Source of the DNA: Candidatus Dadabacteria bacterium
GTDB taxonomy: Bacteria > Desulfobacterota_D > UBA1144 > Nemesobacterales > Mycalebacteriaceae
Direction: 5' to 3'
Assembly: GCA_026708565.1 (NCBI GenBank)
Contig: JAPOUR010000002.1
Location: 49,131-113,130, forward strand
DNA: 64,000 nt
Part shown: in pieces, positions 2,279 through 62,733 of the stretch
How positions within the stretch are numbered: position 1 is the first letter of the stretch
Layout: each line of letters begins with the position of its first letter
Program-made: the position numbers and the translations under genes
The notes under the pieces: generated by a model
Told to the model about the DNA's origin: nothing
What the model saw: only the letters and a program-made list of their open reading frames with translations
The model's database searches: none

Positions 2279-2698
2279 CTATTTCCCGCGTATGACCATG
2301 TAGGTAACCTGTGCCACGGCGACCTGCCGTCCGTCCGTGTCCGTCAGGGAGACGTCCACCGGGCAGAGGGTTCTGCCTGCTTTTATGACGGTTGCAGCGG
2401 CGGTTATGTCCGAGCGGCACGGGCGGAGAAACCGGATGTGAATGTCCGTTGTGGTAATGACGGCTTCCGCTCCGGCAACCGTCAGAACGGCGGCCGCCGC
2501 GACCGTGTCCGCCGCCGTGGTTATGAGGCCGCCGTGGAAGGTGTCAAATATGCCCTCGTAGTTTTTCTTTCTGGGAACTCTCAGTTCGCACGTCCCTTCG
2601 TCCAGCCTTGTTATCTCGGCGGAGAGGAGTTTCATTATGGGAACTCCGTTCATCTTCCGCTCCACCTCTTTCAGAACAGCACTTTTTTTTGCGTCCAT
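2279..2698 (-). CDS. PaaI-family hotdog-fold thioesterase
   Basis: C-terminal 139 aa of ORF 2279..3049, starting MDAKKSAVLKEVERKMNGVPIMKLL. The FHGGLITTAADTVAAAAV motif is typical of PaaI/YbgC-like thioesterases. The upstream ORF extension overlaps folD and is rejected. Confidence 0.7.
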   Translation of the reverse strand: MDAKKSAVLKEVERKMNGVPIMKLLSAEITRLDEGTCELRVPRKKNYEGIFDTFHGGLITTAADTVAAAAVLTVAGAEAVITTTDIHIRFLRPCRSDITAAATVIKAGRTLCPVDVSLTDTDGRQVAVAQVTYMVIRGK

Positions 2699-2789
2699 TT
2701 GACAAGCCCTCCGGTGTTTGCCGCTTCCCGGCTCTCTTTTTATGGTAACCTGTAACTCCCGCCTGCGGCAACGGCGCGGGATTTTACCG

Positions 2790-3653
2790 ATGGCCGCAAA
2801 GATAATAGACGGAGAAAAGATTTCCGCCCGCTTGCGGCGCGGCATCGCCTCGGAGGTTGAATCTCTCAGAGAGTCAAGCGGTGTTACGCCCGGCCTCGCG
2901 GCCGTTCTGGTGGGAAACGACCCGGCTTCCGAGATATATGTGGAGCGCAAAACGCGCGCGTGTGGCGAGGTGGGAATTCGCTCCGAAGAAGTGCGTCTCG
3001 GCGCGGAGACGACCGAAGGGGAGTTGCTCTCCGTCATAGAGCGCCTCAACGCAGACCCGGAAGTTCACGGCATACTGGTTCAACTGCCGCTCCCTCAGGG
3101 CATAAATGAAACCGCCGTGCTGGGCGCGGTCTCGCCCCTGAAAGATGTGGACGGCTTTCATCCCGAAAACATGGGAATGCTTATGGAGGGCAATCCGCGT
3201 TTTATCTCGTGCACGCCCTACGGCATTATGGAGATTATTGACCATTTGGGGATAGATGTTCTCGGCAAAGACATAGTGGTTATCGGCAGAAGCAACATAG
3301 TGGGCAAGCCGGTCGCGGCGATGCTTTTGAACAGAGACGCCACTGTTACGGTCTGCCACTTGTGCACGAAGAACCTTGCCGCTTTCACGCGCGGGGCGGA
3401 GATACTTATAGTTGCCATCGGCTGCTCCGAGTTCATCAAGGGGGATATGATAAGGGAGGGGGCGGTGGTGATAGATGTGGGAATCAACAGGGACGGGAAC
3501 GGCAGGATAACGGGAGATGTGGATTTTGAGTCCGCATCAAAGGTGTGTTCGCGCATAACGCCCGTTCCGGGCGGGGTTGGCCCTATGACTATAACAATGC
3601 TTCTGAGCAACACCCTTCAGGCGGCGCGGTTGGCGGTTGAAAGGAAGGGGTAA
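2790..3653 (+). CDS. folD: bifunctional methylenetetrahydrofolate dehydrogenase/cyclohydrolase
   Basis: MAAKIIDGEKISARLR...PGLAAVLVGNDPASEIYVERKTRAC...HGILVQLPLP...ITPVPGGVGPMTI are canonical FolD motifs. Start set at the ATG at 2790. Confidence 0.95.
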   Translation: MAAKIIDGEKISARLRRGIASEVESLRESSGVTPGLAAVLVGNDPASEIYVERKTRACGEVGIRSEEVRLGAETTEGELLSVIERLNADPEVHGILVQLPLPQGINETAVLGAVSPLKDVDGFHPENMGMLMEGNPRFISCTPYGIMEIIDHLGIDVLGKDIVVIGRSNIVGKPVAAMLLNRDATVTVCHLCTKNLAAFTRGAEILIVAIGCSEFIKGDMIREGAVVIDVGINRDGNGRITGDVDFESASKVCSRITPVPGGVGPMTITMLLSNTLQAARLAVERKG

Positions 3654-3662
3654 AGGTTGCCG

Positions 3663-4334
3663 TCAGGGACGGAGCAAGTCTGAGATTTCTTGAAAATCAG
3701 GATGGTTTTTGTGTATGTCTTGCCACATATCAAAAGTCGTTTTGCCCTCACTATCCCTTGCCTCAATATCCGCCCCCGCTTTCAGTAACTCCCTTATTGC
3801 TTCAGTTTGCCCTCTGATCGCCGCCCACATCAGAGATGTCTCGCCGAAATTAGCCTTTGCGTTGACATCCGCCCCTGCTTTCAACAACTCCCTTATTGCT
3901 TCGGTTTGCTTGAACCATGTCGCCCCTATCAGGGCTGTATTACCGAGATTACTCCTTGCCTCAATATTTGCCCCCGCTTTCAGCAACTCCCTTATTGCTT
4001 CGGTATGCCCTTTGGTCGCCGCCACTCCCAGAGCTGTATTGCCGAGATTATCCCCTGCTTCAATATTCGCCCCTGCTTTCAGCAACTCCCTTGTTGCTTC
4101 GGTATGCCCTAAATACGCCGCCACTCCCAGAGCCGTATTGCCGAAATTATCCCTTGCGTTGACATCCGCCCCTGCTTTTAACAATTCTCGTATTGTTTCG
4201 GTTTGTCCTTCTACCACCGCCACAATCAAAGCCGTCCTACCGTCATTATCCCTTGCATTAACATTAGAACTCTTCTTGTAAAGAAAAACCATTCCCGCCA
4301 AGATAAGAACTGCCACAACTATTGCTACCTCCAT
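3663..4334 (-). CDS. membrane-anchored ankyrin-repeat protein (N-terminal TM helix plus 6 ANK repeats)
   Basis: N-terminus MEVAIVVAVLILAGMVFLY is hydrophobic. It is followed by six 33-aa units of the form DNxGNTALxxAxxxGHTEAIRELLKAGAxxxA. AGGAGGG SD upstream. Confidence 0.9.
   Translation of the reverse strand: MEVAIVVAVLILAGMVFLYKKSSNVNARDNDGRTALIVAVVEGQTETIRELLKAGADVNARDNFGNTALGVAAYLGHTEATRELLKAGANIEAGDNLGNTALGVAATKGHTEAIRELLKAGANIEARSNLGNTALIGATWFKQTEAIRELLKAGADVNAKANFGETSLMWAAIRGQTEAIRELLKAGADIEARDSEGKTTFDMWQDIHKNHPDFQEISDLLRP
3765..4259. repeat. tandem 99-bp coding repeats (ankyrin units) with high nucleotide identity
   Basis: Five consecutive 99-nt units share long identical strings, e.g. 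gcccc(t/c)gctttcagcaactccctt(a/g)ttgcttcggt. The period equals one 33-aa ANK repeat. Confidence 0.85.
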
Positions 4335-4369
4335 CTCAAACCCTCCTGTAACAGTTTAATGTAGGCATT

Positions 4370-4476
4370 ATATCCACCCACCAAACCGCTTCTCCACAAT
4401 TCCACAAACCTTTCCACACAGTTTCAACGGGTTTTCCACAGTTCAGGGGCAGTTTTCCACACCCGGATGTGGAAAA
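4370..4476. promoter_or_regulatory. cluster of seven DnaA-box-like 9-mers (TTWTNCACA family)
   Basis: TTTTCCACA at 4432-4440 and 4453-4461, with the inverted TGTGGAAAA at 4468-4476, are perfect fits to TTWTNCACA. TTCTCCACA (4390-4398) and CTTTCCACA (4410-4418) have one mismatch each. AATTCCACA (4398-4406) and ATATCCACC (4370-4378) have two mismatches each. An AT-rich stretch, acagtttaatgtaggcattatat, lies just to the left. Confidence 0.5.
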
Positions 4477-4970
4477 AAACGGCTCTCTTTCATCTCAACC
4501 CTGAAGTTGTCTTTAACGCCCGCAAGCATCTCCGCAACTGTTTCGCCCGTTTCCGGGTGAGTGAAACCGGGCGCAATGAGGGCTAACGGCTCAAGAATAA
4601 AACGCCTTTCACGGGCAAGCGGGTGGGGAATTCGCAACCCCCCGCTTTCAATCACTTCGCCCCCGTAAAACAGTATGTCAAGATCAATTATTCTCGGTCT
4701 GTTGTTTCCCTTTTCCCGCCGCCCCATTGCCCTTTCAACCTCCTGAAGTTTCATCAGCAGGTCTTCCGGAGCGGGCGCGCCCTCCAACTCCGCGACCGCA
4801 TTCATAAAAAACGGCTGTTCATCCTCCACGCCCACCGGCTCGGTTTCAAACAGGGGCGAGACCTTTACGACAGACGCAAAAGATGACACATGCAAAAGCG
4901 CGCGGACGCAGTTTGCCTCCCTGTCGCCAAGGTTTGTTCCTATTCCGATAAAGATTCGCGCCCCGCTCAA
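4443..4970 (-). CDS. folK: 2-amino-4-hydroxy-6-hydroxymethyldihydropteridine diphosphokinase (HPPK)
   Basis: IFIGIGTNLGDREANC...SPLFETEPVG...RPRIIDLDILFYG...IPHPLARERRFILEPL are HPPK signatures. The stop overlaps the thiD-folK ATGA junction at 4967-4970. Confidence 0.9.
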   Translation of the reverse strand: MSGARIFIGIGTNLGDREANCVRALLHVSSFASVVKVSPLFETEPVGVEDEQPFFMNAVAELEGAPAPEDLLMKLQEVERAMGRREKGNNRPRIIDLDILFYGGEVIESGGLRIPHPLARERRFILEPLALIAPGFTHPETGETVAEMLAGVKDNFRVEMKESRFFPHPGVENCP

Positions 4971-5707
4971 GAGTTCCGCTCCCGCCTTATCATATCGGAC
5001 ACAAAATCCCCCGCCCTTGCGACCGCCTCTTTTTCGTCCAGCCCCCTTGCAAGAAACGCGCAGAGGGCGGACGAGAACACACAGCCCGTTCCGCGCGCGC
5101 TCCCGCCCTCCCTTTTGCGCCTGATTTTATGAGACCGCCCGCCGGAAAACAGCAAGTCGCAAACCTCGCTTCCCGGCAAATGCCCGCCCGTTATGATGAC
5201 CGCGCGCGCCCCGAACGCCCCTATGGCGCGCGCTGCGGTTTCCATGTCATCCTCGCTTTCCACCGCCCCGCCGCAAAACCTGCCCGCCTCCTCGGTGTTG
5301 GGCGTAACAAAGTCGCACAGCGGGAGCAACTCTTTTTTGAGCGCCTCCACGCCGCCGTCAGTCAGCAGGGGCGAGCCGGAGGAGGATTTCATAACGGGGT
5401 CCGCCACTATATTGCCGAGGGAATAGTCCCTTATGTTGCGGCACACGGCGATGACCGTTTCCTCGTCAAACAGCATTCCCGTTTTTGCCGCGTCCGGCGC
5501 TCCCGCCTCCACAGCGGCGGCGAACATGGCGTCTATAAGGGCGGTCGGGGTTTTTTCCGCCGCCCGAACCCCGCCGCCGGTCTGCGCCGTCAGGCAGACG
5601 CACACCGCGCTTCCCCGGACGCCGAGGGCGGAAAATGTTTTCAAGTCGGCGCTGAGACCCGCGCCGTCCGAGGAATCAAAACCGGCTATTGAGAGCGCGC
5701 TACGCAT
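4967..5707 (-). CDS. thiD: hydroxymethylpyrimidine/phosphomethylpyrimidine kinase
   Basis: ALSIAGFDSSDGAGLSADLKTFSALGV...VADPVMKSSSG...VTPNTEEA...GTGCVFSSAL is the ThiD/PfkB-type pattern. Confidence 0.85.
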   Translation of the reverse strand: MRSALSIAGFDSSDGAGLSADLKTFSALGVRGSAVCVCLTAQTGGGVRAAEKTPTALIDAMFAAAVEAGAPDAAKTGMLFDEETVIAVCRNIRDYSLGNIVADPVMKSSSGSPLLTDGGVEALKKELLPLCDFVTPNTEEAGRFCGGAVESEDDMETAARAIGAFGARAVIITGGHLPGSEVCDLLFSGGRSHKIRRKREGGSARGTGCVFSSALCAFLARGLDEKEAVARAGDFVSDMIRRERNS

Positions 5708-5798
5708 GGCTTGAACTGTTTAACAGACGGCGGGGGATTTTACAAAAACGCGCGGGGCTGTATAATTGCGGTCTCAAGTTCAAACGGAGAGGTGAGTT

Positions 5799-8187: not shown

Positions 8188-8757
8188 ATGAGGAACACGA
8201 AAAGCCATACGCATGAAGTCTGGGCAAGTCTAATTCTTTGCGATAGAGACCAGAAAAGGATTAAAAAATTCCTTGTAAGTGATTTTGGACTCAAAGAGAA
8301 AAGCGTAGTTAAGGAAATGCACCTAACCGTATACCATTCCCGTAGACTCTTTCGAGGTGTTTACCCACTTTCAGAGTCGGCTTCTGTTGAGTTAGATGTA
8401 GGGGATACCCGCTTCATGGTAATGATTTCAGGTGGAGAAAATCCTCGTGTTGGCGTTAAACCGGGAGACAAACGCATTGGTATCAGAGTGCAAAAAAGAA
8501 GCAAGACAAGAAACATAGTTGACCAATACCGTTCTTGCTTGACAGCACTGGAGTCTCAAGACATTCTCGGTAAGCGAAAACGTAGCACCAGAAGCCATAA
8601 TGCTTTTGGTGCAAAATCTTTTCAACCCCACATGACATTACTGCTTCCCGGTAGCGGTATAGGGCAAGACCTGAGAGAGATAGGCATTGCTTTTCGTAAA
8701 ACCCTAGGACTTTTAGTATTTGATAGATTCTCAGTTGAAGTCTCGAAGATTCGCTGA
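8188..8757 (+). CDS. 2H phosphoesterase superfamily protein (LigT/ThpR-like), divergent
   Basis: 189 aa with two H-x-T motifs at the expected spacing (MHLTVY and PHMTLL) and an N-terminal beta-strand, WASLILCD. About 40% GC on a counted sample line, well below the flanks. Confidence 0.55.
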   Translation: MRNTKSHTHEVWASLILCDRDQKRIKKFLVSDFGLKEKSVVKEMHLTVYHSRRLFRGVYPLSESASVELDVGDTRFMVMISGGENPRVGVKPGDKRIGIRVQKRSKTRNIVDQYRSCLTALESQDILGKRKRSTRSHNAFGAKSFQPHMTLLLPGSGIGQDLREIGIAFRKTLGLLVFDRFSVEVSKIR

Positions 8758-8861
8758 CCAATCCTATAGAAATGAAGTACGCAGACAAAATCAACATTGA
8801 GCAACTGATGCCTGAATTAGGGTTTTTTGCCATTGGGCTGTAATAACTTACACTTCCACCC

Positions 8862-10334
8862 GTGATAACTCCTTCCTTTACAGAGTTCAAAAAGAAACTG
8901 AAACACGGAAACCTGATTCCCGTATGGGACGAGATACCGCAAGTTGACGACACGCCCGTATCCGTGTTTGCCAAGATAGACAGGTCGGAGCATTCGTTTC
9001 TTTTTGAAAGCGCGGACGGCACGGACAAGTGGGCGCGCCACAGTTTTCTGGGGTCGGGCTCAAACTGCATTTTCCGCGCCAGAGGGCGGAGTGTTGAGAT
9101 CATTGAAAACGGCTCGGCGCGAACCGAAACGGGCGACCCGTTTGAACTTCTGCGGAAACTTCTGGGAAGATACAAGTTTGTGGCGGACCCCGGCGTTGCC
9201 CCCTTTTCCGGCGGCGCGGTGGGCCATATGAACTATGACGCCGTGCGGCTGATTGAAGACCTGCCCGCAAGCAAGCCCGACCTGCTTGGAGTCTGGGACT
9301 TGCACTTTGCCGTTACCTTTTCCGTCCTCATTTTTGACAACACAAACAGTAGCGTGAAAATCGTTGTCTGCGCCCACTGCCCCGATCCCGGGCGCGCAAA
9401 AGAGGTTTACGACTCCGCCACGAAGGAGATAGAGCGGCTGAAAAGCGCGGTTGCCGCCCCCCCGCCCCGGAGTTCCGCTCCCGCGCGGGACGGCGGCGCG
9501 GGAGCGCCGTCATCCAATTTTGAGAGGGCGGACTTTGAAAGCGCGGTCGCCGCAGTGAAGGAATACATACGCGCGGGCGACATAATACAGGCGGTAATAT
9601 CGCAGAGGTGGCATACCCCCCTTGATGTGAAGCCGCTCGCTCTTTACCGCGCGCTGAGGGAACTCAACCCGTCTCCCTACATGTTTCTGCTGAAAACCGG
9701 CGGACAGACGCTTGTCGGCGCGTCTCCCGAAGTGATGGTCAGAAAAACCGGCGCCGTTGTGGAGAGCCGCCCCATTGCCGGGACCCGCCCGAGGGGCGCG
9801 GACGCCGCCGCCGATGACGCGCTCGCCCGCCAGCTTCTTGCCGATGAAAAGGAGCGCGCGGAACACATAATGCTTGTGGACCTGGCGCGCAACGACCTTG
9901 GAAGGGTCGCAAAGCCCGGCACGGTCAAGGTGGATTCCTTTATGAAGGTTGAGAGGTATTCGCACGTGATGCACATGACATCCAATGTGAGGGGCGAGAT
10001 CGCCCCCGGGCGCGACATGATTGATTTGGTGAAGGCGGTGTTTCCGGCGGGCACGCTCAGCGGCGCGCCCAAGGTCCGGGCGATGGAGATAATAGACGAG
10101 ATAGAGCCGAGCACGAGGGGCCCCTACGGCGGCGCGGTGGGCTATATGAGTTTTTCGGGCGATATGGACACGTGCATCGCCATCAGGACTTTCCTGATTA
10201 AGGACGGCTCAATATACTTTCAGGCGGGCGCGGGAATTGTGGCGGATTCCGACCCCGCAAAGGAATACGAGGAGACGGTCAACAAAGCGAGGGCGCTGAT
10301 TAAGGCGCTTGAAAAGGCGCGGAGTGTAAAATAA
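8862..10334 (+). CDS. trpE: anthranilate synthase component I
   Basis: N-terminus ...KHGNLIPVWDEIPQVDDTPVSVFAKI, plus chorismate-binding motifs IAGTRPRG, LLADEKERAEHIMLVDLARND and GGAVGYMSFSGDMDTCIAIRT. GTG start at 8862. Confidence 0.95.
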   Translation: MITPSFTEFKKKLKHGNLIPVWDEIPQVDDTPVSVFAKIDRSEHSFLFESADGTDKWARHSFLGSGSNCIFRARGRSVEIIENGSARTETGDPFELLRKLLGRYKFVADPGVAPFSGGAVGHMNYDAVRLIEDLPASKPDLLGVWDLHFAVTFSVLIFDNTNSSVKIVVCAHCPDPGRAKEVYDSATKEIERLKSAVAAPPPRSSAPARDGGAGAPSSNFERADFESAVAAVKEYIRAGDIIQAVISQRWHTPLDVKPLALYRALRELNPSPYMFLLKTGGQTLVGASPEVMVRKTGAVVESRPIAGTRPRGADAAADDALARQLLADEKERAEHIMLVDLARNDLGRVAKPGTVKVDSFMKVERYSHVMHMTSNVRGEIAPGRDMIDLVKAVFPAGTLSGAPKVRAMEIIDEIEPSTRGPYGGAVGYMSFSGDMDTCIAIRTFLIKDGSIYFQAGAGIVADSDPAKEYEETVNKARALIKALEKARSVK

Positions 10335-26355: not shown

Positions 26356-27311
26356 TTTGCCCCGGCGCGGAGACCGGATTCTCCGCCGCTGTGTTTTGAG
26401 CCAAGGGCGGTCGCCTGTTTCTCCGCATGATAGGAACTGCGCACAAGCGGCCCCGCCTCAACGTGCGGTATGCCCACTATTTTTTCCCCGTATTCTTTGA
26501 GCGACTCAAACTCAACCGGGTGATAGAAGCGCGACACGGGGATATGGTCATAAGTGGGCTGTAGATACTGCCCTATGGTAACAATGCCGCATCCGGCGGC
26601 GCGGAGGTCTCTGAGGGTGAGGGTTATTTCCTCAAACGTTTCCCCAAGCCCCACCATGATGCCGGATTTTGTGAGCGTCCCTCCGGCGGACGCGGTTTTC
26701 AGAAGCGCGAGTGAACGTTCGTAAACCGCCTGAGGGCGGACGGCGCGCAGTTTGCCGGTTTGTGTTTTCTGTTGCAGCGCGTAAAGGCGCGGAACGGTCT
26801 CTATGTTGTGGTTCAGCACGTCCGGCTTTTCGCACAGAACGGTTTCAAGCGCTTCTTCCGAGCCCTTGAAGTCGGGAATGAGGCACTCCACTTTGACGGA
26901 CGGCGCGGCTCTCTTTATCTCCCTCACTGTCAGCGCGAAGATTTTTGCGCTGTCAAGGTTTTTGTCGTCCCTGTTGACCGATGTTACAACGACGTGGGAA
27001 ATAAGGGAGTTGTGGCTTATAAGGTTGCTCACCGCTTCCGCGACCCGCAGGGGCTCGTCCCAGTCAAGCGGGCCTCCGGCGCCGGTTTTCACATGGCAGA
27101 AGCCGCAACTTCTTGTGCAGGTGTCGCCCATTATCATAAAAGTGAGCGTCCCCGCGCTCCAGCACTCCCCGATGTTCGGACAGCGCGCCTCTTCGCAAAC
27201 GGTGTGAAGCCCAAGGTTGCGGGTAAGCCCTTTGAGCCGGGTGTAGTTATCGCCGGAAGGGATTTTCGCCTTTATCCAGGAGGGCTTGCCGGATGGTGTT
27301 TGCGCTTTCAT
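26352..27311 (-). CDS. lipA: lipoyl synthase
   Basis: VCEEARCPNIGECW and CTRSCGFCHV are the two Fe-S cluster motifs. 4-nt overlaps with both neighbouring genes. Confidence 0.95.
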   Translation of the reverse strand: MKAQTPSGKPSWIKAKIPSGDNYTRLKGLTRNLGLHTVCEEARCPNIGECWSAGTLTFMIMGDTCTRSCGFCHVKTGAGGPLDWDEPLRVAEAVSNLISHNSLISHVVVTSVNRDDKNLDSAKIFALTVREIKRAAPSVKVECLIPDFKGSEEALETVLCEKPDVLNHNIETVPRLYALQQKTQTGKLRAVRPQAVYERSLALLKTASAGGTLTKSGIMVGLGETFEEITLTLRDLRAAGCGIVTIGQYLQPTYDHIPVSRFYHPVEFESLKEYGEKIVGIPHVEAGPLVRSSYHAEKQATALGSKHSGGESGLRAGAN

Positions 27312-28075
27312 AACGGTGTTCCGCTTTGTGGGGGGACGGGGATAACAGGGTTTCGCCCGCCCAAGTGCTCACTTACTGATTTGTAAAGATACTTATCGCT
27401 TATTTCATCAGGTGTTTTGCGGTTACTTGTGAAGAACCATCTGCGCGGGTCGATGCGGTGACTGCCTATGTTATGATTTGGAAACTCTTCTATTGTTGCG
27501 TCTACTGCTCTATGCCATTCATCTACAGAAAACACACCGCGCACAGTTCCGTTGAACACCCCGAAAGCGTATTGGGCTTTCTCTCTGTGTTCTTCTTTGA
27601 TAAGCCAAAAACCGCGAGTCATCTCATAAATTTGCTTTTGACACATGCCCGGTTTGAAGGTGTTTTTAATGTTAAAGAGAAGAACATAATGCTGTATGTC
27701 AACTAGCTCGTTCCTTTCCTGAATCACGATTTCCCCAAGCAGTTCCCTACCATGTTCGGTGTCATGCCCGCGCACGATGTTTGTAAGGTTCTCCAAGCCG
27801 ATGGCGTCTATAACACACCGCTCAACCAATTGGGCTTCATCTTCCGTAGCCAACCTGCGGGCGAGAATCTCAATGCGCGGTTCAAACCCTTTGGCTCTCA
27901 ATTCTTGTATCCATCTGACTTTCTTGGATTCCCTTCTGTCAGATAGATGCTCAATGGCGCGGTTACCGACACCTTTGCCTACATACATGACTTTCCCGTT
28001 GCGGGGGTCAACATACAGGTAAACGTAATGCCCCAGTTTCTCGGCGACTTCAGGGGGGATTTCCTGATTTTTCAT
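27308..28075 (-). CDS. GIY-YIG nuclease-superfamily protein with an uncharacterised C-terminal domain
   Basis: N-terminus HYVYLYVDPRNGKVMYVGKGVGNRAIEH...E carries GIY-YIG-type motifs. The C-terminal ~130 aa were not recognised. 33-43% GC on counted sample lines. The stop overlaps the lipA start (ATGA at 27308-27311). Confidence 0.65.
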   Translation of the reverse strand: MKNQEIPPEVAEKLGHYVYLYVDPRNGKVMYVGKGVGNRAIEHLSDRRESKKVRWIQELRAKGFEPRIEILARRLATEDEAQLVERCVIDAIGLENLTNIVRGHDTEHGRELLGEIVIQERNELVDIQHYVLLFNIKNTFKPGMCQKQIYEMTRGFWLIKEEHREKAQYAFGVFNGTVRGVFSVDEWHRAVDATIEEFPNHNIGSHRIDPRRWFFTSNRKTPDEISDKYLYKSVSEHLGGRNPVIPVPPQSGTPL

Positions 28076-37714: not shown

Positions 37715-37844
37715 CGCTCAAAATCGGCTTAAAACTATACTATTGGCAAGGGCGGTCAAGGAAAGGGTTGTTTGCGGGTTTGACATTAAAGCGCCGGTTT
37801 TATGTTATAGTTCAGACGGGCCGGTTGCCCCGGAGGAAAAGACT

Positions 37845-38792
37845 ATGACGGAGCGTTTGAAATTTGCGGTAAAGAGTTTTCGGAGTCGCCCGCCGCTGAC
37901 GGCGCTGGCGGTTGCCGTTGTTCTTTCCCTTTCCGCCTGCGGCGGGGGAGGGGGAGGCGGAGGCGGCGCCGGTGGCATCGGACCCACTTCCCTCGGCTTG
38001 GGTTCCGGCGCGGCGGTCAGACAGAGAGCCGCTGGAAATGACCCCGTTCCCGGCAGTGTTACTCAGGGGAGCCGCGCTACTTCCGGAATAACCGCCGATA
38101 CGGTTCAGTATCAGGGAGGCAGTATTGTGGCAGATGGCGTAGGCACTCTTGCCCCCGCATCCGTCTCCATTCCCGAACTTCCCGGGGCGCAAGTTTTCAT
38201 GCACGAGCGCGCGATTGCCGTTGCCATTTCGGGTTTTGACGCTCAAGATGTGCCTCAGTATGAGAATACCGACCCTCTGCTGTTTGGATTCTGGGCTTAC
38301 GAGGTGACTCCAGACAACATAATATGGGGGGCGTTTGCTGACGGGCTGAGCGTTAGTAAAACTCCCGCCGCCACCATTACCGCTGCTACAGGTAGCGCAA
38401 CATATCAGGGAAAGACACTGGCCGCTTATGAAAACATTGGCGGTCAAGGAGATTCCGGTATGGCAACGGCGGACGTGAATCTTCTTGTACAATTTGGGGG
38501 TAGTCCTACGGTCGGCGGAACTATAGACAACCTCATAGACATCTCGAACAACATGGGTGTGCCCGGGCAGATACTTCTTGGGGCGGCCTCAATTGACCGC
38601 ACCGTTGACGGAGGATTTTTCAAGGGTGAAACCTCCGGACCCGATAATGTTAGAGGAAAATGGGGCGGCCAGTTTTTCGGTACGGAATACCAATACATCG
38701 GAGGCACTTGGGGCGCCAGTTTCCGCGATGAGGATGGCGTTTTTTCCGCAGCCGGGGCTTTCAGCGCTACAAAGCAACCCCCTACGGAATAA
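37845..38792 (+). CDS. surface-lipoprotein candidate with TbpB-like C-terminal beta-barrel domain (Slam substrate-like)
   Basis: ATG at 37845 after GGAGGAAAAG. Lipobox LSLSAC followed by a Gly-rich linker. The C-terminus GSATYQGKTLAAY...ATADVNLLVQFGGSPTVGGTIDNL...GGFFKGETSG...GKWGGQFFGTEYQYIGGTWGASF resembles the TbpB_B_D / Lipoprotein_5 barrel consensus (ATYxG...VDF...G.I...G.F.G...G.FYG..A.E.GG.F). Confidence 0.6.
   Translation: MTERLKFAVKSFRSRPPLTALAVAVVLSLSACGGGGGGGGGAGGIGPTSLGLGSGAAVRQRAAGNDPVPGSVTQGSRATSGITADTVQYQGGSIVADGVGTLAPASVSIPELPGAQVFMHERAIAVAISGFDAQDVPQYENTDPLLFGFWAYEVTPDNIIWGAFADGLSVSKTPAATITAATGSATYQGKTLAAYENIGGQGDSGMATADVNLLVQFGGSPTVGGTIDNLIDISNNMGVPGQILLGAASIDRTVDGGFFKGETSGPDNVRGKWGGQFFGTEYQYIGGTWGASFRDEDGVFSAAGAFSATKQPPTE
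37894..37942. repeat. 49-nt exact repeat, copy 1 (lipoprotein signal peptide coding)
   Basis: cgctgacggcgctggcggttgccgttgttctttccctttccgcctgcgg is identical at 40214-40262. Weaker similarity extends ~25 nt further upstream. Confidence 0.9.
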
Positions 38793-38808
38793 AATCCGCG
38801 CGCCCGTT

Positions 38809-40128
38809 TTGTTGACCCGCGCAATACCCGCCTTTCTGTTTTTTCTCGCTCTTTTTCCGGCAATGCCCGCGCCCGCCTTTGCGGACGCCGTGCCTTTGGA
38901 GGCCGAATCCCTCAACTCAGCCCGCGCCGCTCTTTCCGGCGGCGATGCGGAGGACGCCCTCCGCATTCTGGACTCTCTTGACCCCGGCGGGGTTGCTGAC
39001 CGCAGAACCTTTGATTTTGTGCGCGGTCTTGTCCTCATGGAACTTGGCCGCCCGAAGGAGGCGGTTGACTCCTTCAAATCGGTGGTCAACCGCGAGCCGT
39101 GGCTGCTCCGCCCGCGTCTGGAACTTGCCCGCGCCTATTTTGCCTCTGGCGATTACCCGAACGCCAAAAATCAGTTTGAGGCCGTTCTCTCCGAAGACAT
39201 TCCCCCGGCGGTGCGCGGAAACATAGAAAAATTTCTGTCGCTGATGAAAGAGCGGCGTTCGTGGACTGTGGACTTTGCAATAGGGGTTGCCGAAGACAGC
39301 AATATAAACGAGTCCACTTCCCTGCAAACCGTTGTCATCGGCGGGTTGCCCTTCCGGCTGAGCGATGATTCCCGCGAGACCGGCGGCAGGGGGGTGAACT
39401 TTTTTCTCGGCGGCTCATGGCGGACGGGTTTCGGGGGGCTTGGCGGCGGAGACACCCTTGGCGTTTCGGCGCGGCTGTGGGTCAAGGATTACGGGGGCGA
39501 GAGTTTTGACCAGCACACGTTTGAGGTTTTTCCGAACTATGTAAAGAGTCTTGGCGGCGGGGAGGTTGCCGCCGGTCCCGTATTCTGGCGCAGTCTGCTT
39601 GCGGGGCGTTTATACGAGCAGTCAATCGGGGGCAGGGTGGAAGGCAATCTGCCGCTCTCCCCGGTCTGGCGGCTGTCCGCCGGGGCGGAGGTCATAAATC
39701 ACGAGTTCCCGCGCAATTCCCTTCAGGACGGCAACAGCGCGGGGGCAAGATTTTCCCTTACCCGTTTGTTTGGCATTCGCACTGCCTCAACTCTTCTTGC
39801 CGCCGCGGTCTTACGCCGCGCCGGGGCGGGGCATCTTGAATACGATGAGTTTTCCGCCGGAAAGGGTTTTTACCGCGAAATGCCCATGGGATTCACCGTC
39901 TCCCTGAGGGCAGACGCCGCGAGGCGCGTTTACAGGGAGGCGGACCCCTTTTTCGGAGACCGCCGCGAGTGGACGGGGTATTTTTCGGCGAGCATGGCAA
40001 ACAGGCTGCTTTCATACCGGGGGTTTTATCCGAGGGTGACGGTCATCCATACGAGGCGCGATTCATCGGCGGACTTTTACGACTACACGAGAACGCGCTT
40101 TGTTTTTGATATAACGCGGAGGTTTTGA
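38809..40128 (+). CDS. Slam-like outer-membrane protein (N-terminal TPR plus DUF560 beta-barrel)
   Basis: A TTG start at 38809 gives the signal peptide (M)LTRAIPAFLFFLALFPAMPAPAFA/DA. TPR region ...ELARAYFASGDYPNAKNQFEAVLSEDIPPAVRGNIEKFLSLM, then VDFAIGVAEDSNINEST. Alternating barrel strands and a terminal ...FVFDITRRF (C-terminal Phe). Lies adjacent to the TbpB-like lipoprotein. Confidence 0.65.
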   Translation: MLTRAIPAFLFFLALFPAMPAPAFADAVPLEAESLNSARAALSGGDAEDALRILDSLDPGGVADRRTFDFVRGLVLMELGRPKEAVDSFKSVVNREPWLLRPRLELARAYFASGDYPNAKNQFEAVLSEDIPPAVRGNIEKFLSLMKERRSWTVDFAIGVAEDSNINESTSLQTVVIGGLPFRLSDDSRETGGRGVNFFLGGSWRTGFGGLGGGDTLGVSARLWVKDYGGESFDQHTFEVFPNYVKSLGGGEVAAGPVFWRSLLAGRLYEQSIGGRVEGNLPLSPVWRLSAGAEVINHEFPRNSLQDGNSAGARFSLTRLFGIRTASTLLAAAVLRRAGAGHLEYDEFSAGKGFYREMPMGFTVSLRADAARRVYREADPFFGDRREWTGYFSASMANRLLSYRGFYPRVTVIHTRRDSSADFYDYTRTRFVFDITRRF

Positions 40129-40161
40129 AAGGGTTGATTTGCTGGTATCCTGATTATTGTC

Positions 40162-40374
40162 ATGACAATGCGTTTGAAAGACTTCACAGCAAAGAGTTTT
40201 CCGGGTCGCCTGACGCTGACGGCGCTGGCGGTTGCCGTTGTTCTTTCCCTTTCCGCCTGCGGAGGCGCGGGGAGCGGGGAAGGCGCGAGATTCGGGACGC
40301 CTCCCGAAACTCTTGTTCGCCCCGATATAGGAATTGGCGGCCACATCAAGCGTGTCGCGCCCGCTTTGCGTTAG
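40162..40374 (+). pseudogene. truncated second surface-lipoprotein gene (signal peptide plus ~35 codons only)
   Basis: MTMRLKDFTAKSFPGRLTLTALAVAVVLSLSACGGAGSGEG... has an N-terminus paralogous to 37845..38792 but stops after 70 codons. No barrel domain follows; the AT-rich island begins downstream. Confidence 0.55.
40214..40262. repeat. 49-nt exact repeat, copy 2
   Basis: Identical to 37894-37942. Confidence 0.9.
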
Positions 40375-40567
40375 GGGAGTGGCGCGACACGGGCGCGTGG
40401 CCGGGGTGTGATGGTTGGTTGTGCGGCGCGCAGTTTATCTGCGGGTTTTTGAGACTGCGGGAGGCTGTGCGGGGTTTGTGCTACACTAAAGCAAACAACA
40501 TGTTGCTTGCTAGGGGAATAATGAATAGTAGATGTCTCAATAATCTTTGTAGTAAGGTAGATGAGTT

Positions 40568-41773
40568 GTGAGTCAAATCGAAGAAGTGACTATTACGAGC
40601 CTTGAAGACTACCTGTTAGAGGTAAAGAAACTTTACATGGAAGAGACGGAAAAAGCCGAAAGTGCACCTCGCTTTATTTATCGTGGACAAAAAAACGCGA
40701 GTTGGAAACTACAAAGCAGTGCTACTGTTAGGCTTCTTAATGAGAGCGAATTAGAATTCAAATACCCATTTCAGATTTCCTCCTTGTTTTTAGGCTATTT
40801 AGATCAGATGGTAGACGAAGTTCGCTTGACATATCCTAATATCTACAAAAATCTTGATCATTTGGAGATAATGGCACACTTGCAACATAATAGAGTGGCA
40901 ACAGGATTGATAGATTTTACATACAGTTCCTTGGTGGCTTTGTGGTTTGCTTGCGAGGAAGACAATCAAAATGAAGAAGGTAAGTATAATGATGGGAAAG
41001 TGTTTTGCATGAATGTAAACTACAAGGATAGCAAGATAGAAGAGATTAGGACTAAAGACGAACTAAAAAAGGATGTAGAAAGTTTTTTTAAAAATGATGG
41101 TAGATGGTATATTTGGCAACCAGCAATTGGGAATCCGAATGTAGAGACTCAACGCCTAACTATGCAACAATCGGTATTTCTGTTTGGAATGCCGAGTGTT
41201 GAAGAAAAAATGTTAGCGAAAGTTTTTATTGTGCTCGCAGACAACAAGAGAAACATGCATCAAGAATTGGAATATATGGGAATTACTGAGAAAAACCTCT
41301 TTTCTGACTTGGCGGGATTTATAGAGAGGAATAGTAAAACAAAATACTACAATAAAAGACTGGGTGTCCACTACTATGACAAGAAACTCAAAAGAAAAAG
41401 AAGTTTTACCAATCTCTATCAAAGAGGAATGTTTTACCTTGCTTTAGAAGAATATAAAAAGGCAATTGAAGATTTCACCGAAGCGACTGGCCTTGTAGAT
41501 GTTGAGAAATATCAGAAGAGTATTGCTTATGTAGGTAGCGGCTGGGCCAAGAGCCGATTAGATATGGTTGCAGAGGCAGTAATGGATTATACGGAAGCAA
41601 TCAGGCTCAATTCCCAAAATGACGGAGCGTACACCAATCGCGGCTGGCTTCAGTATAAATTAGGAAAGCACGCAGAAGCAATAAACGATCTGAAAAAATC
41701 TCTTGAAATCAATTCCGGAAATTTGACTGCATCTAACATTCTTAAGAGAATAGAAGGAGAACTGAAAATCTAA
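40568..41773 (+). CDS. FRG-domain protein with C-terminal TPR repeats
   Basis: FIYRGQKNASWKLQSS (the F/YRG motif), MAHLQHNRVATGLIDFTYSSLVALWFACEE and RLTMQQSVFLF match my recall of the FRG domain (PF08867). The C-terminal ~120 aa form 3 TPR units (YQRGMFYLALEEYKKAIEDFTEA..., AYTNRGWLQYKLGKHAEAINDLKKSLEIN). GTG start at 40568. Confidence 0.65.
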   Translation: MSQIEEVTITSLEDYLLEVKKLYMEETEKAESAPRFIYRGQKNASWKLQSSATVRLLNESELEFKYPFQISSLFLGYLDQMVDEVRLTYPNIYKNLDHLEIMAHLQHNRVATGLIDFTYSSLVALWFACEEDNQNEEGKYNDGKVFCMNVNYKDSKIEEIRTKDELKKDVESFFKNDGRWYIWQPAIGNPNVETQRLTMQQSVFLFGMPSVEEKMLAKVFIVLADNKRNMHQELEYMGITEKNLFSDLAGFIERNSKTKYYNKRLGVHYYDKKLKRKRSFTNLYQRGMFYLALEEYKKAIEDFTEATGLVDVEKYQKSIAYVGSGWAKSRLDMVAEAVMDYTEAIRLNSQNDGAYTNRGWLQYKLGKHAEAINDLKKSLEINSGNLTASNILKRIEGELKI

Positions 41774-41980
41774 AGGTTGCATTGATGACAGACTTTGTTT
41801 CAGACATCTTGTTTAGAGTTGCTTATTTGCAGAATGAGCCATTGTAGTGGTGATGAGCACACACAACTGACAAATTCCATGTACTATCCTCACCTCTTTA
41901 ATGTAGGGGGATTATGTGGTGAACCTCTATGTGGTTTTATCCGTTTGGCTTAACGAAAAAGTTGGAATCTATGTATTAAA

Positions 41981-42023
41981 GTTGCCAAACCCATTTGACA
42001 CTTTGGCAACTGTAATATATAGT
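41981..42023 (+). promoter_or_regulatory. sigma70-type promoter (TTGACA-17-TATAGT) overlapped by a 9-bp inverted repeat
   Basis: TTGACA at 41995-42000, a 17-nt spacer, then TATAGT at 42018-42023. The inverted repeat gttgccaaa (41981-41989) / tttggcaac (42002-42010) straddles the -35. GAAGGAGG SD at 42038-42045 precedes the ATG at 42054. Confidence 0.65.
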
Positions 42024-42053
42024 GTTGTTATCTTGATGAAGGAGGTAATTCAG

Positions 42054-42254
42054 ATGACAACATACGAATTACATAAACGCGCTCTTGGAGCGACCAGTTT
42101 AGTAGCCTCTTGTTTGGCAAAGACAAATGACCTTCGCCGTGTAGCTATTACCGAGAATGATCGGAGCAAGTCCGCCGAGATAGCGGGCGAACTTTCGGAC
42201 TTGGCTGACACTCTCAAGAAGACAGCAAACGCGATTGCTGACAGGGCGGAATAA
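42054..42254 (+). CDS. small (66 aa) predicted all-helical protein, first gene of the island operon
   Basis: ORF 41916 trimmed to the ATG at 42054, which has a strong SD. MTTYELHKRALGATSLVASCLAKTNDLRRVAITENDRSKSAEIAGELSDLADTLKKTANAIADRAE. No family recognised. Confidence 0.5.
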   Translation: MTTYELHKRALGATSLVASCLAKTNDLRRVAITENDRSKSAEIAGELSDLADTLKKTANAIADRAE

Positions 42255-42257
42255 GCA

Positions 42258-42632
42258 ATGCCAGAAAACAAGAGCGTTTACGGATTTTTGCGCCGGTTTC
42301 CCAACGAGGCGGCGGCGCGGGAGTTCTTTGAAAATCTGAAATGGGGAGACGAGCCGCATTGTCCGCATTGCGGTTGTTTTGAAGTGTCGGAAGTGAAGCA
42401 TAAATCTATGCCTTATCGCTGTCGGGGTTGCCGGAGGTACTTCAGCGTCCGCACAGGGTCGGTTCTGGAGAGTAGCAAGGTCTCTCTCCACACATGGCTA
42501 ATGGCGATGTATCTGGTTGCTGAGTCCAGCAAAGGGGTTTCTTCCGTCCAGTTGGCGAAATGGCTTGGCGTTCAGCAAAAGACCGCTTGGTTTATGGCTC
42601 ATCGGATGAAGTATGGAGAGTTGACACAATGA
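42258..42632 (+). CDS. IS1595-family transposase N-terminal Zn-ribbon/HTH module only (DDE domain absent)
   Basis: FPNEAAAREFFENLKWGDEPHCPHCGC...YRCRGCRRYFSVRTGSVLESSKVSLHTWLMAMYLV...LAKWLGVQQKTAWFMAHRM matches the Zn_Tnp_IS1595 (PF12760) region. The ORF ends where the DDE_Tnp_IS1595 domain would begin. Its stop overlaps the next ATG (ATGA at 42629-42632). Confidence 0.65.
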   Translation: MPENKSVYGFLRRFPNEAAAREFFENLKWGDEPHCPHCGCFEVSEVKHKSMPYRCRGCRRYFSVRTGSVLESSKVSLHTWLMAMYLVAESSKGVSSVQLAKWLGVQQKTAWFMAHRMKYGELTQ

Positions 42633-43453
42633 AAACGGCAACGGCAAAAAAAGACCTGTTCAAAATAGACGCGCCTTTTGAGGATGTTGCGCGGGCTGTT
42701 GTGAACGCACCCCCGCCGAAGAAAAGCAAAACGGTTTTCAGCAAGGCACGCGACATTGTTTCCCCGTCCTTTGTCATTCCCAAAGGCGTTAAGACAAACG
42801 CTCCGAACGTAAATGACGGCCTCATCCTTCTTGCGGAGTTGCCCGCTGGAGTTGTGCCGGTTGTTGTCTTTGACCCTCAATATAGGGGCGTTCTGGATTA
42901 TCAAGGGTTTGGTAATGAGGGAGACAAGCGGGGGCGCGCCCGTGCCGAACTCCCACAAATGGGAGAGGATACAATCACGGAGTTTATTCACGCAATCAGC
43001 CGGGTTCTCATTCCGTCTGGTCATCTCTTTTTGTGGGTTGACAAGTTTCATCTCTGTAACGGTATAGACCCCTGGATTTCCGGGACCGACCTGTTTACCG
43101 TTGATATGGTTGTCTGGCATAAGGAACGGCTCGGAATGGGCTACCGGACGCGCCGGACTTGCGAGAGTCTGGTCGTGATACAGAAAGCCCCGAAACGCGC
43201 TAAAGGTGTTTGGAAAATCCACAACATTCCCGATGTATGGTCGGAGGCGAAGGAAAACAGCGGACACACCCACCGCAAGCCCATAGGGTTACAATCGCGC
43301 CTGATTGAGGCCGTAACAAATGAGGGCGACTTTGTTGTTGACCCTGCCGCAGGCAGTTATTCTGTTCTCAAGTCCTGCCAAGAGGTAGGGCGAAACTTTA
43401 TAGGTTGCGACATCGTTGGCACGGTTAAAAAAGGCAAAACCCGGACGGACTGA
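42629..43453 (+). CDS. beta-class (N6A/N4C type) DNA methyltransferase, motif IV variant DPQY
   Basis: Motif IV VVVFDPQYRG precedes motif I FVVDPAAGSYSVLKSCQEVGRNFIGCDI, with HTHRKPIGLQSRLIE in between. This is the N6_N4_Mtase (PF01555) order IV->I. Confidence 0.7.
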   Translation: MKTATAKKDLFKIDAPFEDVARAVVNAPPPKKSKTVFSKARDIVSPSFVIPKGVKTNAPNVNDGLILLAELPAGVVPVVVFDPQYRGVLDYQGFGNEGDKRGRARAELPQMGEDTITEFIHAISRVLIPSGHLFLWVDKFHLCNGIDPWISGTDLFTVDMVVWHKERLGMGYRTRRTCESLVVIQKAPKRAKGVWKIHNIPDVWSEAKENSGHTHRKPIGLQSRLIEAVTNEGDFVVDPAAGSYSVLKSCQEVGRNFIGCDIVGTVKKGKTRTD

Positions 43454-44093
43454 CGGCGGATATACGCGCTTGTTCGGCGTTCCTGAACTTGGTGCGCTGA
43501 TTTCGCAAGTTCATTCCACAAGCATATCGGCAGGAAGGGAACTTGAGAGTATCATCCTTGAGCGTTCCCGCACAATCTCTGACCTTGATGCCTTCCTTGC
43601 TCAAGACATCATTACTGCGGGCGTCTCTGTTGCCTCAAAAGAGGCAATCAAGCAATGCGAGACAATAGATTACCCCGGAGCAGAGCCGGACTTTATGATC
43701 TTCCGGCGCAAGGGAACAGCTCAGGAATGTCTTGTTCTTGAACTCAAAGACGGAGATGCTTTTGACACAAAGAAAGCCGCCGGGGAACGCGCAAACCTTC
43801 ATAGGTTCATCCAGTATCTCGGAACGCGCATTCCTTGGACTGTTGACATGCGCTTTTGTTGCTTCAATCAGCCAGACAAAGACAAAATCCGCGCGGGGTT
43901 CAAAAACAAAATCAGCGAGGCCCAAGCAATGACCGGCTCTGAACTTTGCGGTCTTCTCAATCTTGACTACGCAGAAATCGTGAGAGAGCGGGAAAAAGAC
44001 CAGCCAGAAAACCTTACTGTCTTTGTTGAAAAACTCCTAGGTATTGAGGCGGTCAAATCGGAGATTGTAAAGAGTGGCAACTTTAATACATGA
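43416..44093 (+). CDS. putative PD-(D/E)xK nuclease (restriction endonuclease candidate)
   Basis: GAEPDFMIFRRKGTAQECLVLELKDG provides a PD...ExK arrangement. It lies immediately downstream of, and overlapping, the methyltransferase gene. There is no in-frame ATG near the 5' end, so the start is TTG at 43416 or TTG at 43470 (uncertain). Confidence 0.5.
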   Translation: MARLKKAKPGRTDGGYTRLFGVPELGALISQVHSTSISAGRELESIILERSRTISDLDAFLAQDIITAGVSVASKEAIKQCETIDYPGAEPDFMIFRRKGTAQECLVLELKDGDAFDTKKAAGERANLHRFIQYLGTRIPWTVDMRFCCFNQPDKDKIRAGFKNKISEAQAMTGSELCGLLNLDYAEIVREREKDQPENLTVFVEKLLGIEAVKSEIVKSGNFNT

Positions 44094-44136
44094 TTCCCAG
44101 TTTCGTAATCCAGTAACAATCTCTTATTCCCCCTCA

Positions 44137-61725: not shown

Positions 61726-62733
61726 ATGGCGATTTGGGTGGCAAGGGCTGGAAAACATGGGGGAGAAGAAGACCTCGCTCTTGAGCAAGGACGGGCGTTC
61801 ATTGGTTGGACTCATCTCGGCGATTTGTCCGACATACATACACGAGAACAAATACGCGAACTCTTGGAGAAAAAATATCCAGATTGGAACTCCTATAAAG
61901 TGGGGAACCATACGGGGCAGATATTTAGGTTCATCAAGGAGATTCAAGTTGGTGATTTGCTCGCGTTACCCCTAAAAAAACGACCTACAATTGCGTTTGG
62001 AGAGGTTGTCGGTGACTATGAGTATATAGGTGGTAATCCCGAAAGTGCTCATCACAGTAGAAAAGTAAAATGGAAAAGTGAGCCAATTCCACGGAGTGCT
62101 TTTGATAAGGACCTTCTCTATGCCTTTGGCTCCCTATTAACTGTCTTTCGTGTGAACAAAAACAAGGAAGATAGAATAAAAGCGGTCATAGAGGGAAAGC
62201 CACAGCCAGAGGAAGAGACTGATAATACAGGGGATGAAGAGCAGGCACTTCCTGATTTGGCACAGTTGGCACATGATCAAGTCAGCGATTTTATCGGTTA
62301 CAAATTCAAAAGTCATCGCATGGAAGATTTGGTTGCTGAAGTTTTGAAAGCTCAAGGTTTCGAAGTTCGCCCCAATCCGAGAAAGGGGTCCGATGGCGGT
62401 GTAGATATTCTGGCAGGACGAGGGTCAATGGGATTTGATGAACCTCGTCTTTGCGTTCAGGTGAAGTCAGGTGATACGCCGATTAACTCTACGACCTATA
62501 ATGAATTGAAAGGTGTTATGCAGAAATTTGGTGCCACGCATGGGCTCTTGGTCTCATGGGGTGGTTTTAATCGCAATGTGGAGGAGGAAGCCAAGCGCGA
62601 TTTTTTCAATATCCGCTTGTGGAATGCGGAAGATCTTGTCAATGAAATTCAGGATGTTTACTCTAACCTTCCAAAAGAGATTCAAGCCGAGCTACCTATG
62701 CAACAAATCTGGCTGTTGGTGGATGAGGATTGA
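61726..62733 (+). CDS. Mrr-like (Mrr_cat) restriction endonuclease with COG4127-type N-terminal domain
   Basis: C-terminus GSDGGVDILAG...RLCVQVKSGDTPI...GLLVSWGGF provides a D...QxK PD-(D/E)xK core. N-terminus MAIWVARAGKHGGEEDLALEQGRAFIGW. ~47% GC on a counted sample line. Confidence 0.7.
   Translation: MAIWVARAGKHGGEEDLALEQGRAFIGWTHLGDLSDIHTREQIRELLEKKYPDWNSYKVGNHTGQIFRFIKEIQVGDLLALPLKKRPTIAFGEVVGDYEYIGGNPESAHHSRKVKWKSEPIPRSAFDKDLLYAFGSLLTVFRVNKNKEDRIKAVIEGKPQPEEETDNTGDEEQALPDLAQLAHDQVSDFIGYKFKSHRMEDLVAEVLKAQGFEVRPNPRKGSDGGVDILAGRGSMGFDEPRLCVQVKSGDTPINSTTYNELKGVMQKFGATHGLLVSWGGFNRNVEEEAKRDFFNIRLWNAEDLVNEIQDVYSNLPKEIQAELPMQQIWLLVDED

Follow-up and report, generated by a model that had tools for sequence, protein, structure and literature searches.

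What does an FRG domain do when it is joined to a set of tetratricopeptide repeats (TPRs), and does the combination belong to a conflict system? The question is raised by a gene at positions 40568-41773 (plus strand) of a 64,000-nucleotide (nt) stretch from a Candidatus Dadabacteria bacterium, the whole of which we refer to as the window. The gene, present in the open reading frame (ORF) listing and matched by Pfam and PADLOC, runs from a GTG start to a TAA stop codon and encodes 401 residues; an earlier reading made without database searches (hereafter the sequence-only reading) had proposed its product as an effector combined with a repeat module in a conflict system. Our analysis identifies the protein as the fused form of an obligate two-part FRG + TPR module. 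It is a new member of a known candidate family, for which the domain, the superfamily prediction, the status as a defence candidate and the FRG-TPR architecture are already on record.

Both halves of the protein are recognised by Pfam well above the respective cutoffs. PF08867 (FRG) matches residues 35-136 (nt 40670-40975, plus strand) with E=1.8e-16 and 61.2 bits, compared to a cutoff of 25 bits, and TPR_1 matches with E=9.2e-17 and 60.5 bits, compared to a cutoff of 27.8 bits. TPR_2, TPR_8, TPR_11, TPR_12 and TPR_17 also exceeded their cutoffs, and a scan against NCBIfam returned sub-threshold TPR families only. The three motifs from which the sequence-only reading had named the FRG domain are all in place, namely Y38-R39-G40-Q41, the LIDFT block (L114-IDFTYSSLVALWFA-A128; residues 114-128 read LIDFTYSSLVALWFA, with LIDFT itself at 114-118) and the QQSVFLF block at residues 200-206 (Q200 to F206). 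The Pfam core lies inside a larger conserved unit. Stand-alone FRG homologues of 257-269 residues align to residues 1-270 at 48-51% identity, so that the functional unit exceeds the 94-position Pfam model about 2.5-fold in length. Together with the coverage by PDC-S15 profiles described below and the invariant columns, these homologues define a complete FRG module at residues 1-271 (nt 40568-41380, plus strand), in agreement with the ~270 residues previously assigned to it. The choice of the GTG start at 40568 is supported by the alignment, since homologues begin with the same 'MS', and a protein of identical sequence is found on the ENA contig ROBB21-1_SAMN13943201 scaffold_3.

The C-terminal part (nt 41405-41767, plus strand) comprises three TPR units, at residues 280-313, 314-347 and 352-385, and a capping helix at residues 386-400; Pfam, AlphaFold2 and Foldseek agree on the three units that had been anticipated. 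In the full-length AlphaFold2 model, built from 60 homologues (mean predicted local distance difference test score (pLDDT) 78.9, predicted template modelling score 0.69), the units appear as the helix pairs 280-292/296-307, 314-330/334-347 and 352-364/368-381, which together with the cap helix are modelled with pLDDT above 90, and a linker helix (residues 263-276) lies ahead of them. Foldseek matched this part to three-repeat TPR proteins, including CTPR3 (1na0; template modelling (TM) score 0.87 on the target), with TM scores of 0.87-0.92 on three-TPR targets.

Relatives of the window protein mostly encode FRG and TPR as adjacent, usually overlapping genes, and it is for this reason that we regard the window protein as the fused form of a pair. 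A scan of one genome per species yielded 68 loci, almost entirely from Poribacteria, Binatia, Entotheonella and similar lineages of metagenome-assembled genomes (MAGs), a lineage bias that stems in part from the exact peptide patterns used. Hidden Markov models (HMMs) of both halves were run over all ORFs of these loci, and 60 FRG ORFs of the close subfamily were kept. A same-strand TPR ORF starting at -30 to +400 nt follows the FRG ORF in 49 of the 60; the two parts are fused in 2/60, no TPR ORF was called in 4/60 (at least two of these at contig ends), and the FRG ORF is truncated or frameshifted in 5/60. Contigs fetched in addition contributed 11 fused and 4 split cases. FRG and TPR are typically spaced by -4 nt, with the two genes overlapping in ATGA, or by +11 nt. 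In Binatia the FRG stop codon is overlapped by the ATG of the TPR gene, and in the fused proteins the reading frame continues across this junction, AQGNE followed by MNKEALSENYFQ (also written as ...AQGNE followed by MNKEALSENYFQRANVR...). The TPR protein of Poribacteria can be aligned, from residue 17 onwards, to window residues 285-381, and the separate TPR partners vary from ~130 to ~930 residues in length. In the literature examined, we found no statement of this obligate pairing with interconversion between fused and overlapping-gene forms, nor of the concentration of this FRG-TPR subfamily in Poribacteria and Binatia MAGs.

The Poribacteria loci showed some peculiarities of their own. 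Separate TPR partners (L016 10774-12030, L021, L028, L040 and others) share a C-terminal tail, ...F-E-Q-K-H-x-L-K-L-P-E-D-I-A-A-M-L-T-P..., which is absent from the window protein and recurs on other TPR and FRG-TPR proteins of the same loci; the fused proteins P0012 and P0018 terminate in a similar tail. Some Poribacteria loci (L017, L023, L050, L057, L058) contain up to 7 ORFs of the FRG and TPR clusters in a span of 20 kb, and in about 10 Poribacteria genomes (L031, L032, L049, L058, L061, L062, L066, L067, L070, L071) frameshifts or stops break FRG into two or three ORFs. The fragmented genes are either pseudogenes or indel errors of long-read assemblies.

At the level of the whole family, the combination of FRG with TPRs is common. 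A profile of the FRG module retrieved 10,897 cluster representatives (50% identity) at E<=1e-3 and 2,425 at E<=1e-10. Of the 146 best new representatives, 117 have a length of 330 residues or more, and TPR_1 was detected in 90 of the 97 of these that were scanned; far from being a rare fusion, FRG-TPR is thus a common arrangement and the dominant one in its clade. One family member (P0125) carries two FRG modules followed by TPRs, and members of the wider FRG family are encoded on Lactobacillaceae, Vibrio, Enterobacter and Pantoea plasmids. In PADLOC, 14 models of PDC-S15 match residues 5-253, the best being PDLC04938 (E=3.2e-25, profile positions 41-264 of 276), as judged by E-value and not by the PADLOC per-model cutoffs. 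The PDC collection consists of 145 candidate systems that were picked as embedded in BREX, DISARM and type I restriction-modification (RM) loci (bioRxiv 10.1101/2024.01.29.577857). A phage origin of FRG-TPR was considered and rejected, as a pattern scan of IMG/VR contigs gave no relatives and GenBank phage records gave just 2 weak matches.

The genomic context of the relatives was assessed as a tally of neighbours and not as statistical enrichment. Fused relatives occupy six independent contexts, and in 6/6 they either have RM, toxin-antitoxin, SIR2 or dCTP-deaminase genes as neighbours or are plasmid-borne. The window and the orthologous locus L005 carry type II and HNH RM systems. L002 and L004 represent one hotspot, with a BrxC-like ATPase and methylases or with an N6 methylase and a T5orf172 gene, and L003 combines two FRG-TPR genes in tandem (2352-5741) with HigB, SIR2_2, PemK and HepT. 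L074 has HNH, an SMC-like ATPase and SNase. In L075, L078 and L079 the gene comes directly after PLD-SNF2 and an Eco57I-type (type IIG) methylase, accompanied by a further FRG gene, SocA, a Schlafen-like ATPase and DCD, and L076 and L077 correspond to a Rep3/ParA/relaxase plasmid with M78/HTH, MazG, DCD and SIR2_2. In 12 non-Poribacteria species-representative genomes, 66 non-redundant neighbours were counted up to 7 kb from the gene; several of them are type IIG/ISP or type I RM enzymes, an HKD-Snf2 helicase and matches to mad2/mad3 are also present, and many others are ordinary metabolic genes. Two synteny groups of Poribacteria pairs were seen, one of which (the other is considered below) has MazE/PemK and Fic as neighbours within a BatA-VWA-DUF58 region. 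The fused clade thus shows a clear association with defence and the Poribacteria pairs a weak one, so that the association is not universal. The proposal of an effector and repeat module in a conflict system gains from the PDC-S15 match, the position in an islet next to a type II RM cassette and the six fused contexts, and it loses generality with the Poribacteria pairs. About 8 kb from one such Poribacteria pair, L080 encodes a 1,619-residue protein (from 16729) that unites UvrD helicase, RuvC and TPR.

In the window itself, the gene is horizontally acquired and sits in a small islet of foreign composition. At 37.5% its G+C content (GC) is the lowest among 58 ORFs tested (window mean 56%), which bears out the description of it as the most AT-rich gene of the window. 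The islet spans 3.7 kb of low GC and includes the FRG-TPR gene adjoining a type II RM cassette; GC drops from 0.63 to 0.42 at about 40450. Its left edge is marked by a 70-residue lipoprotein fragment (40162-40374, plus strand) that copies the signal peptide/lipobox end of the lipoprotein gene at 37845, and a direct repeat of 95 nt at 87% identity (37871-37965 and 40191-40285) is present in the two copies. The foreign islet appears to have cut off this second lipoprotein gene.

The comparison with L005, a 3,983-nt contig from another sample, indicates which part of the islet is stable. L005 represents the same locus, with flanks matching at both ends, and its FRG-TPR gene shares 94.5% DNA identity and 92% protein identity with that of the window. 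The RM slot of L005 is filled by an unrelated set comprising HNH, an N6/N4 methylase and MT-A70, which makes the RM cassette look mobile and exchangeable. What the window retains of an HNH endonuclease gene is a 140-nt piece of its 3' end at 41826-41965 (minus strand), matched by blastn to L005 1492-1630 with 85.7% identity over 140 nt; this stretch of L005 lies within its intact HNH gene (1422-2438, minus strand). From this alignment, the remnant is readily interpreted as the scar of a cassette replacement. The RM cargo turns over between the two strains, and FRG-TPR is retained.

We used the same pair of sequences, the window gene and its L005 orthologue, to estimate the ratio of non-synonymous to synonymous substitution rates (dN/dS). 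The FRG part gave dN/dS 0.20 (23 synonymous and 21 non-synonymous changes) and the TPR part about 1.0 (3.5 synonymous and 13.5 non-synonymous changes), a difference with Fisher p of 0.02-0.05. None of the 33 amino-acid differences between the two proteins (0/33) falls at a family-invariant residue. These substitution patterns indicate that the FRG part is under purifying selection and that the gene is functional, and the TPR part may be under relaxed or diversifying selection.

Which reaction, then, would FRG catalyse? The sequence-only reading held that FRG has no assigned biochemical function, and this needs correcting, as a published prediction exists. The Aravind group places FRG in the ADP-ribosyltransferase (ART) superfamily as a probable or potential NADase effector of anti-viral immunity, alongside RES as an ART-clade processor of nicotinamide adenine dinucleotide (NAD+) (PMC9503650), and a survey of Legionella ARTs counts FRG among known ART-like families (PMC12522546). 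On the strength of this literature prediction, FRG probably adopts an ART fold and carries out NAD+ hydrolysis or ADP-ribose transfer. Across 97 diverse members, R39, G40, D116, R196 and D247 are invariant and Q106, H107, T112, Q200, S202 and K227 near-invariant. In the full-length AlphaFold2 model, which is of moderate confidence over residues 1-270, strand 36-41 terminates in YRG with R39 at the strand end, strand 115-118 (IDFT; D116-F-T118) is followed by helix 121-128, and strand 202-206 is preceded by Q200-Q201. Near the YRG, DFT and QxS motifs, strands and helices thus succeed one another in the model in a way that is compatible with an ART core. When compared to the ART triad (R-S-E or H-Y-E, on strands 1, 2 and 5), R39 ends strand 1, D116-F-T118 lies on strand 2 and Q200-x-S202 takes the strand-5 position.

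Together, these data lead us to favour, with a confidence that stops a little short of an even chance, the view that the window protein is a single-polypeptide version of a widespread two-component conflict module of a toxin-antitoxin- or abortive-infection-like kind, with TPR as the restraining or sensing part and FRG as the enzyme that uses up NAD+ or ADP-ribosylates a target. Membership of the conflict or toxin-antitoxin class is more likely than this combined statement, and less confidence attaches to the specific chemistry and to sensing by the TPRs. The toxin-antitoxin-like character is suggested by the fused and split forms, the gene overlap and the published ART assignment taken together. 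Mechanistically, the TPR module would bind and restrain the FRG active site in the manner of an antitoxin-like auto-inhibitor, a phage-derived protein or peptide would occupy the TPR groove and thereby release FRG, and the released FRG would deplete NAD+ or ADP-ribosylate an essential target, so that the infected cell is stopped. A bolder form of this proposal, which we consider somewhat unlikely, is that FRG + TPR constitutes a self-contained sensor-effector whose TPRs directly recognise a phage protein and release an ART-fold, NAD+-consuming FRG, and that it ranks among the dominant unrecognised defence modules of sponge-symbiont lineages (Poribacteria, Binatia), held at fixed chromosomal sites with several paralogues per genome.

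Several results weigh against the favoured account. The position of the ART catalytic Glu is taken by Q200-x-S202, that is, Gln/Ser instead of Glu, for which reason NADase chemistry is not assured. A model of FRG alone (38-sequence alignment) reached pLDDT 42 and gave no usable fold, and Foldseek comparison of the full-length model with PDB and BFVD gave TPR proteins only among the matches listed. A profile of FRG alone yielded a single chance match among PDB sequences (E=0.87), and that of the whole protein yielded TPR proteins only. When 38 FRG proteins were compared to Pfam at E<=10, no ART family was returned, the extra matches being DUF7587, SH3_10 and weak non-ART noise, and the PADLOC scan of the window protein returned PDC-S15 only and no ART family; such HMM-versus-sequence searches are expected to miss remote ART links. 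No biochemical or phage experiment on any FRG protein was found in the searched literature. The PDC description (bioRxiv 10.1101/2024.01.29.577857) presents PDC-S15 explicitly as an untested candidate, and PDC systems are still treated elsewhere as unvalidated. With regard to control, the TPRs could act as inhibitor, sensor, scaffold or targeting module, and the contrast in dN/dS is based on 17 substitutions in one sequence pair. Finally, the Poribacteria pairs lie at conserved chromosomal positions, for the most part with housekeeping genes around them, and one of their synteny groups, with pairs between POR/Peptidase_M55 and Fe-ADH/PQQ genes, has no defence neighbours.

If the TPR part were simply an antitoxin and FRG a toxin, the pair would be a plain toxin-antitoxin or addiction module that stabilises an islet or plasmid without phage sensing. 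The translationally coupled two-gene layout resembles that of toxin-antitoxin operons, a fused copy comes directly after rep on the Rep3/ParA/relaxase plasmid, the Poribacteria copies next to MazE/PemK and Fic fit as well, and ART-superfamily toxins such as RES pair with antitoxins. However, a covalently fused antitoxin is not separately degradable, as classical addiction requires, and TPR partners that range from ~130 to ~930 residues and are possibly under relaxed selection would be better explained by recognition of a ligand than by an antitoxin of fixed function. Moreover, the family was detected embedded in BREX, DISARM and RM loci, and we regard pure addiction as unlikely. A second alternative is FRG as an enzyme or binding domain of non-NAD+ chemistry, for instance nucleic-acid or nucleotide processing, which would still be part of a conflict system. 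This would be consistent with an ART assignment that was not reproduced by structure or profile searches, with the missing canonical Glu alongside invariant polar residues (R39, D116, R196, D247) and near-invariant ones (Q106, H107, Q200, S202, K227), and with two FRG-like phage families in PHROGs whose function is unassigned. Conversely, two independent groups arrived at ART-like placement through profile and structure comparisons (PMC9503650 and PMC12522546), and the strand and helix order at YRG, DFT and QxS in the AlphaFold2 model fits an ART core; we judge a departure from NAD+ chemistry to be decidedly improbable.

A third alternative would make the protein a host-interaction factor of sponge symbionts, with the TPRs as eukaryotic-like repeats that target a sponge protein and FRG modifying that target. 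Such a role might be read from the near-restriction of the 68 loci to Poribacteria, Binatia, Entotheonella and similar MAG lineages, from the ankyrin-repeat protein that the window also encodes, and from Poribacteria copies at conserved non-island positions with multiple paralogues per locus. The lineage distribution is, however, in part a product of the peptide patterns of the scan, while the wider family is found on the Lactobacillaceae, Vibrio, Enterobacter and Pantoea plasmids, the fused relatives lie in defence and toxin-antitoxin contexts, and no obvious N-terminal signal peptide is apparent in the translation (inspected by eye, with no predictor). We give this explanation very little weight.

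The region upstream of the gene was examined for regulatory features. A repeat search located a 22-nt near-palindrome, AGCAAACAACATGTTGCTTGCT, at 40490-40511, with 10/11 positions paired and 57-78 nt upstream of the start codon. The sequence-only reading had placed it correctly, apart from its full extent. Three palindromes of that quality occur in the window, compared to 0.6 expected from a first-order Markov simulation with a maximum of 3 in 40 runs, and the element falls in a 35-nt stretch that is missing from L005. We rejected it as a conserved operator on both grounds, absence from the closest orthologous locus and near-chance frequency, and the sequence comparison suggests that it is probably not a conserved regulatory site. 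The two further 22-nt near-palindromes of equal quality are at 4454-4475 (TTTCCACACCCGGATGTGGAAA) and 38945-38966 (ATGCGGAGGACGCCCTCCGCAT). A promoter scan upstream of the FRG-TPR gene found no strong sigma-70-like site. The publicly annotated ORF at 40125-40571 (plus strand, 145-148 residues), whose TGA overlaps the GTG of the FRG-TPR gene, was likewise set aside as probably no gene; its Arg/Cys-rich, junk-like composition resembles that of GC-rich sequence read out of frame, it overlies the fragment of the lipoprotein gene in a different frame, and it is frameshifted in L005 by the 35-nt indel.

The RM cassette next to the FRG-TPR gene, and outside it, extends over 41966-44130 (plus strand), as defined by PADLOC, Pfam and inverted repeats. 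It encodes a 66-residue ORF (42054-42254), an IS1595-type zinc-ribbon protein (42258-42632; Pfam Zn_ribbon_IS1595), an N6/N4 methyltransferase (about 42629-43453; PADLOC MTase_II 3.4e-78, Pfam N6_N4_Mtase) and a restriction enzyme (about 43470-44093; PADLOC REase_II 5.1e-45), all on the plus strand. Perfect inverted repeats of 17 nt, ATGTATTAAAGTTGCCA, delimit the cassette (41971-41987 and 44075-44091), and the repeat occurs a third time, with 2 mismatches, at 42004-42020, where it flanks a strong promoter-like site, TTGACA-17-TATAGT (41995-42023). Upstream of the islet, matches to slam_lipo and Slam (SlipAM) outline a Slam locus (37743-40374) that consists of a Slam-dependent surface lipoprotein (37743-38792), Slam/SlipAM (38557-40128) and the truncated second lipoprotein (40162-40374). 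Elsewhere in the window, two low-GC nuclease genes may be additional defence or mobile genes, an Mrr_cat restriction endonuclease at 61726-62733 (plus strand, 45% GC, E=7e-22) and a LEM-3-like GIY-YIG protein at 27308-28075 (minus strand, 47% GC). The second most AT-rich stretch (8188-9175, 43-47% GC) contains overlapping ORFs on opposite strands, of 189 (plus) and 230 (minus) residues, neither with a Pfam match. The ankyrin-repeat protein mentioned above is encoded at 3663-4334 (minus strand; Ank_2, E=5e-43), a eukaryotic-like repeat that fits a sponge-symbiont origin, and an Rfam scan of the window gave no matches.

The significance of the locus lies in what it adds to a large family, of ~10,900 clusters at 50% identity, that already has a published prediction as an ART-fold NADase and the status of a PADLOC candidate. 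The TPR partner, whether fused or encoded by an overlapping downstream gene, points to a control logic like that of toxin-antitoxin systems, and the sponge-symbiont phyla emerge as a rich reservoir of the FRG + TPR module. As a compact natural fusion of 401 residues with a 92%-identical orthologue for comparison, the window gene offers an experimental entry point to the family.

PF08867/PDC-S15 is among the closest known systems, as the window protein shares the (F/Y)RG, LIDFT and QxSVF motifs and, in common with the PDC set, occurs next to or within loci of RM type. It differs in that PADLOC matches are confined to the FRG part, with none extending into the TPR region, and in that the TPR partner of the window subfamily, fused or adjacent, does not figure in the published description that was examined. 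ART-superfamily toxins and NADases such as RES-Xre, DarT-DarG and AbiGi are related through the superfamily placement by the Aravind group and the Legionella survey (PMC9503650 and PMC12522546). As with FRG, the gene for an enzyme is accompanied by one for a partner that neutralises or regulates it. However, no sequence similarity is detectable between FRG and the Pfam/PADLOC models of RES, DarT and AbiGi, the partner of FRG is a TPR array and not an Xre, macrodomain or AbiGii protein, and FRG, whose activity is a predicted one, has Gln/Ser at the catalytic Glu position. The STAND/Avs proteins with TPR sensors likewise carry TPR arrays of variable length on an effector, which are proposed to recognise invader proteins. 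In contrast to these, the window protein contains FRG and TPR only in the Pfam scan and no NTPase domain (NACHT, NB-ARC or AAA), which excludes it from the STAND proteins; with its three repeats it is also much smaller than they are. CapRel(SJ46), reportedly described by Zhang et al. in Nature in 2022 as a fused toxin-antitoxin defence protein for which direct sensing of a phage protein was shown, differs in its components, an RelA/SpoT-like pyrophosphokinase and an antitoxin domain that are unrelated to FRG and TPR, and in that phage-protein sensing by FRG-TPR is a proposal. In its organisation it provides a parallel, since a toxin and a C-terminal regulatory domain are combined in one polypeptide and relatives encode the two as separate adjacent genes, just as FRG and TPR occur in fused and split form.

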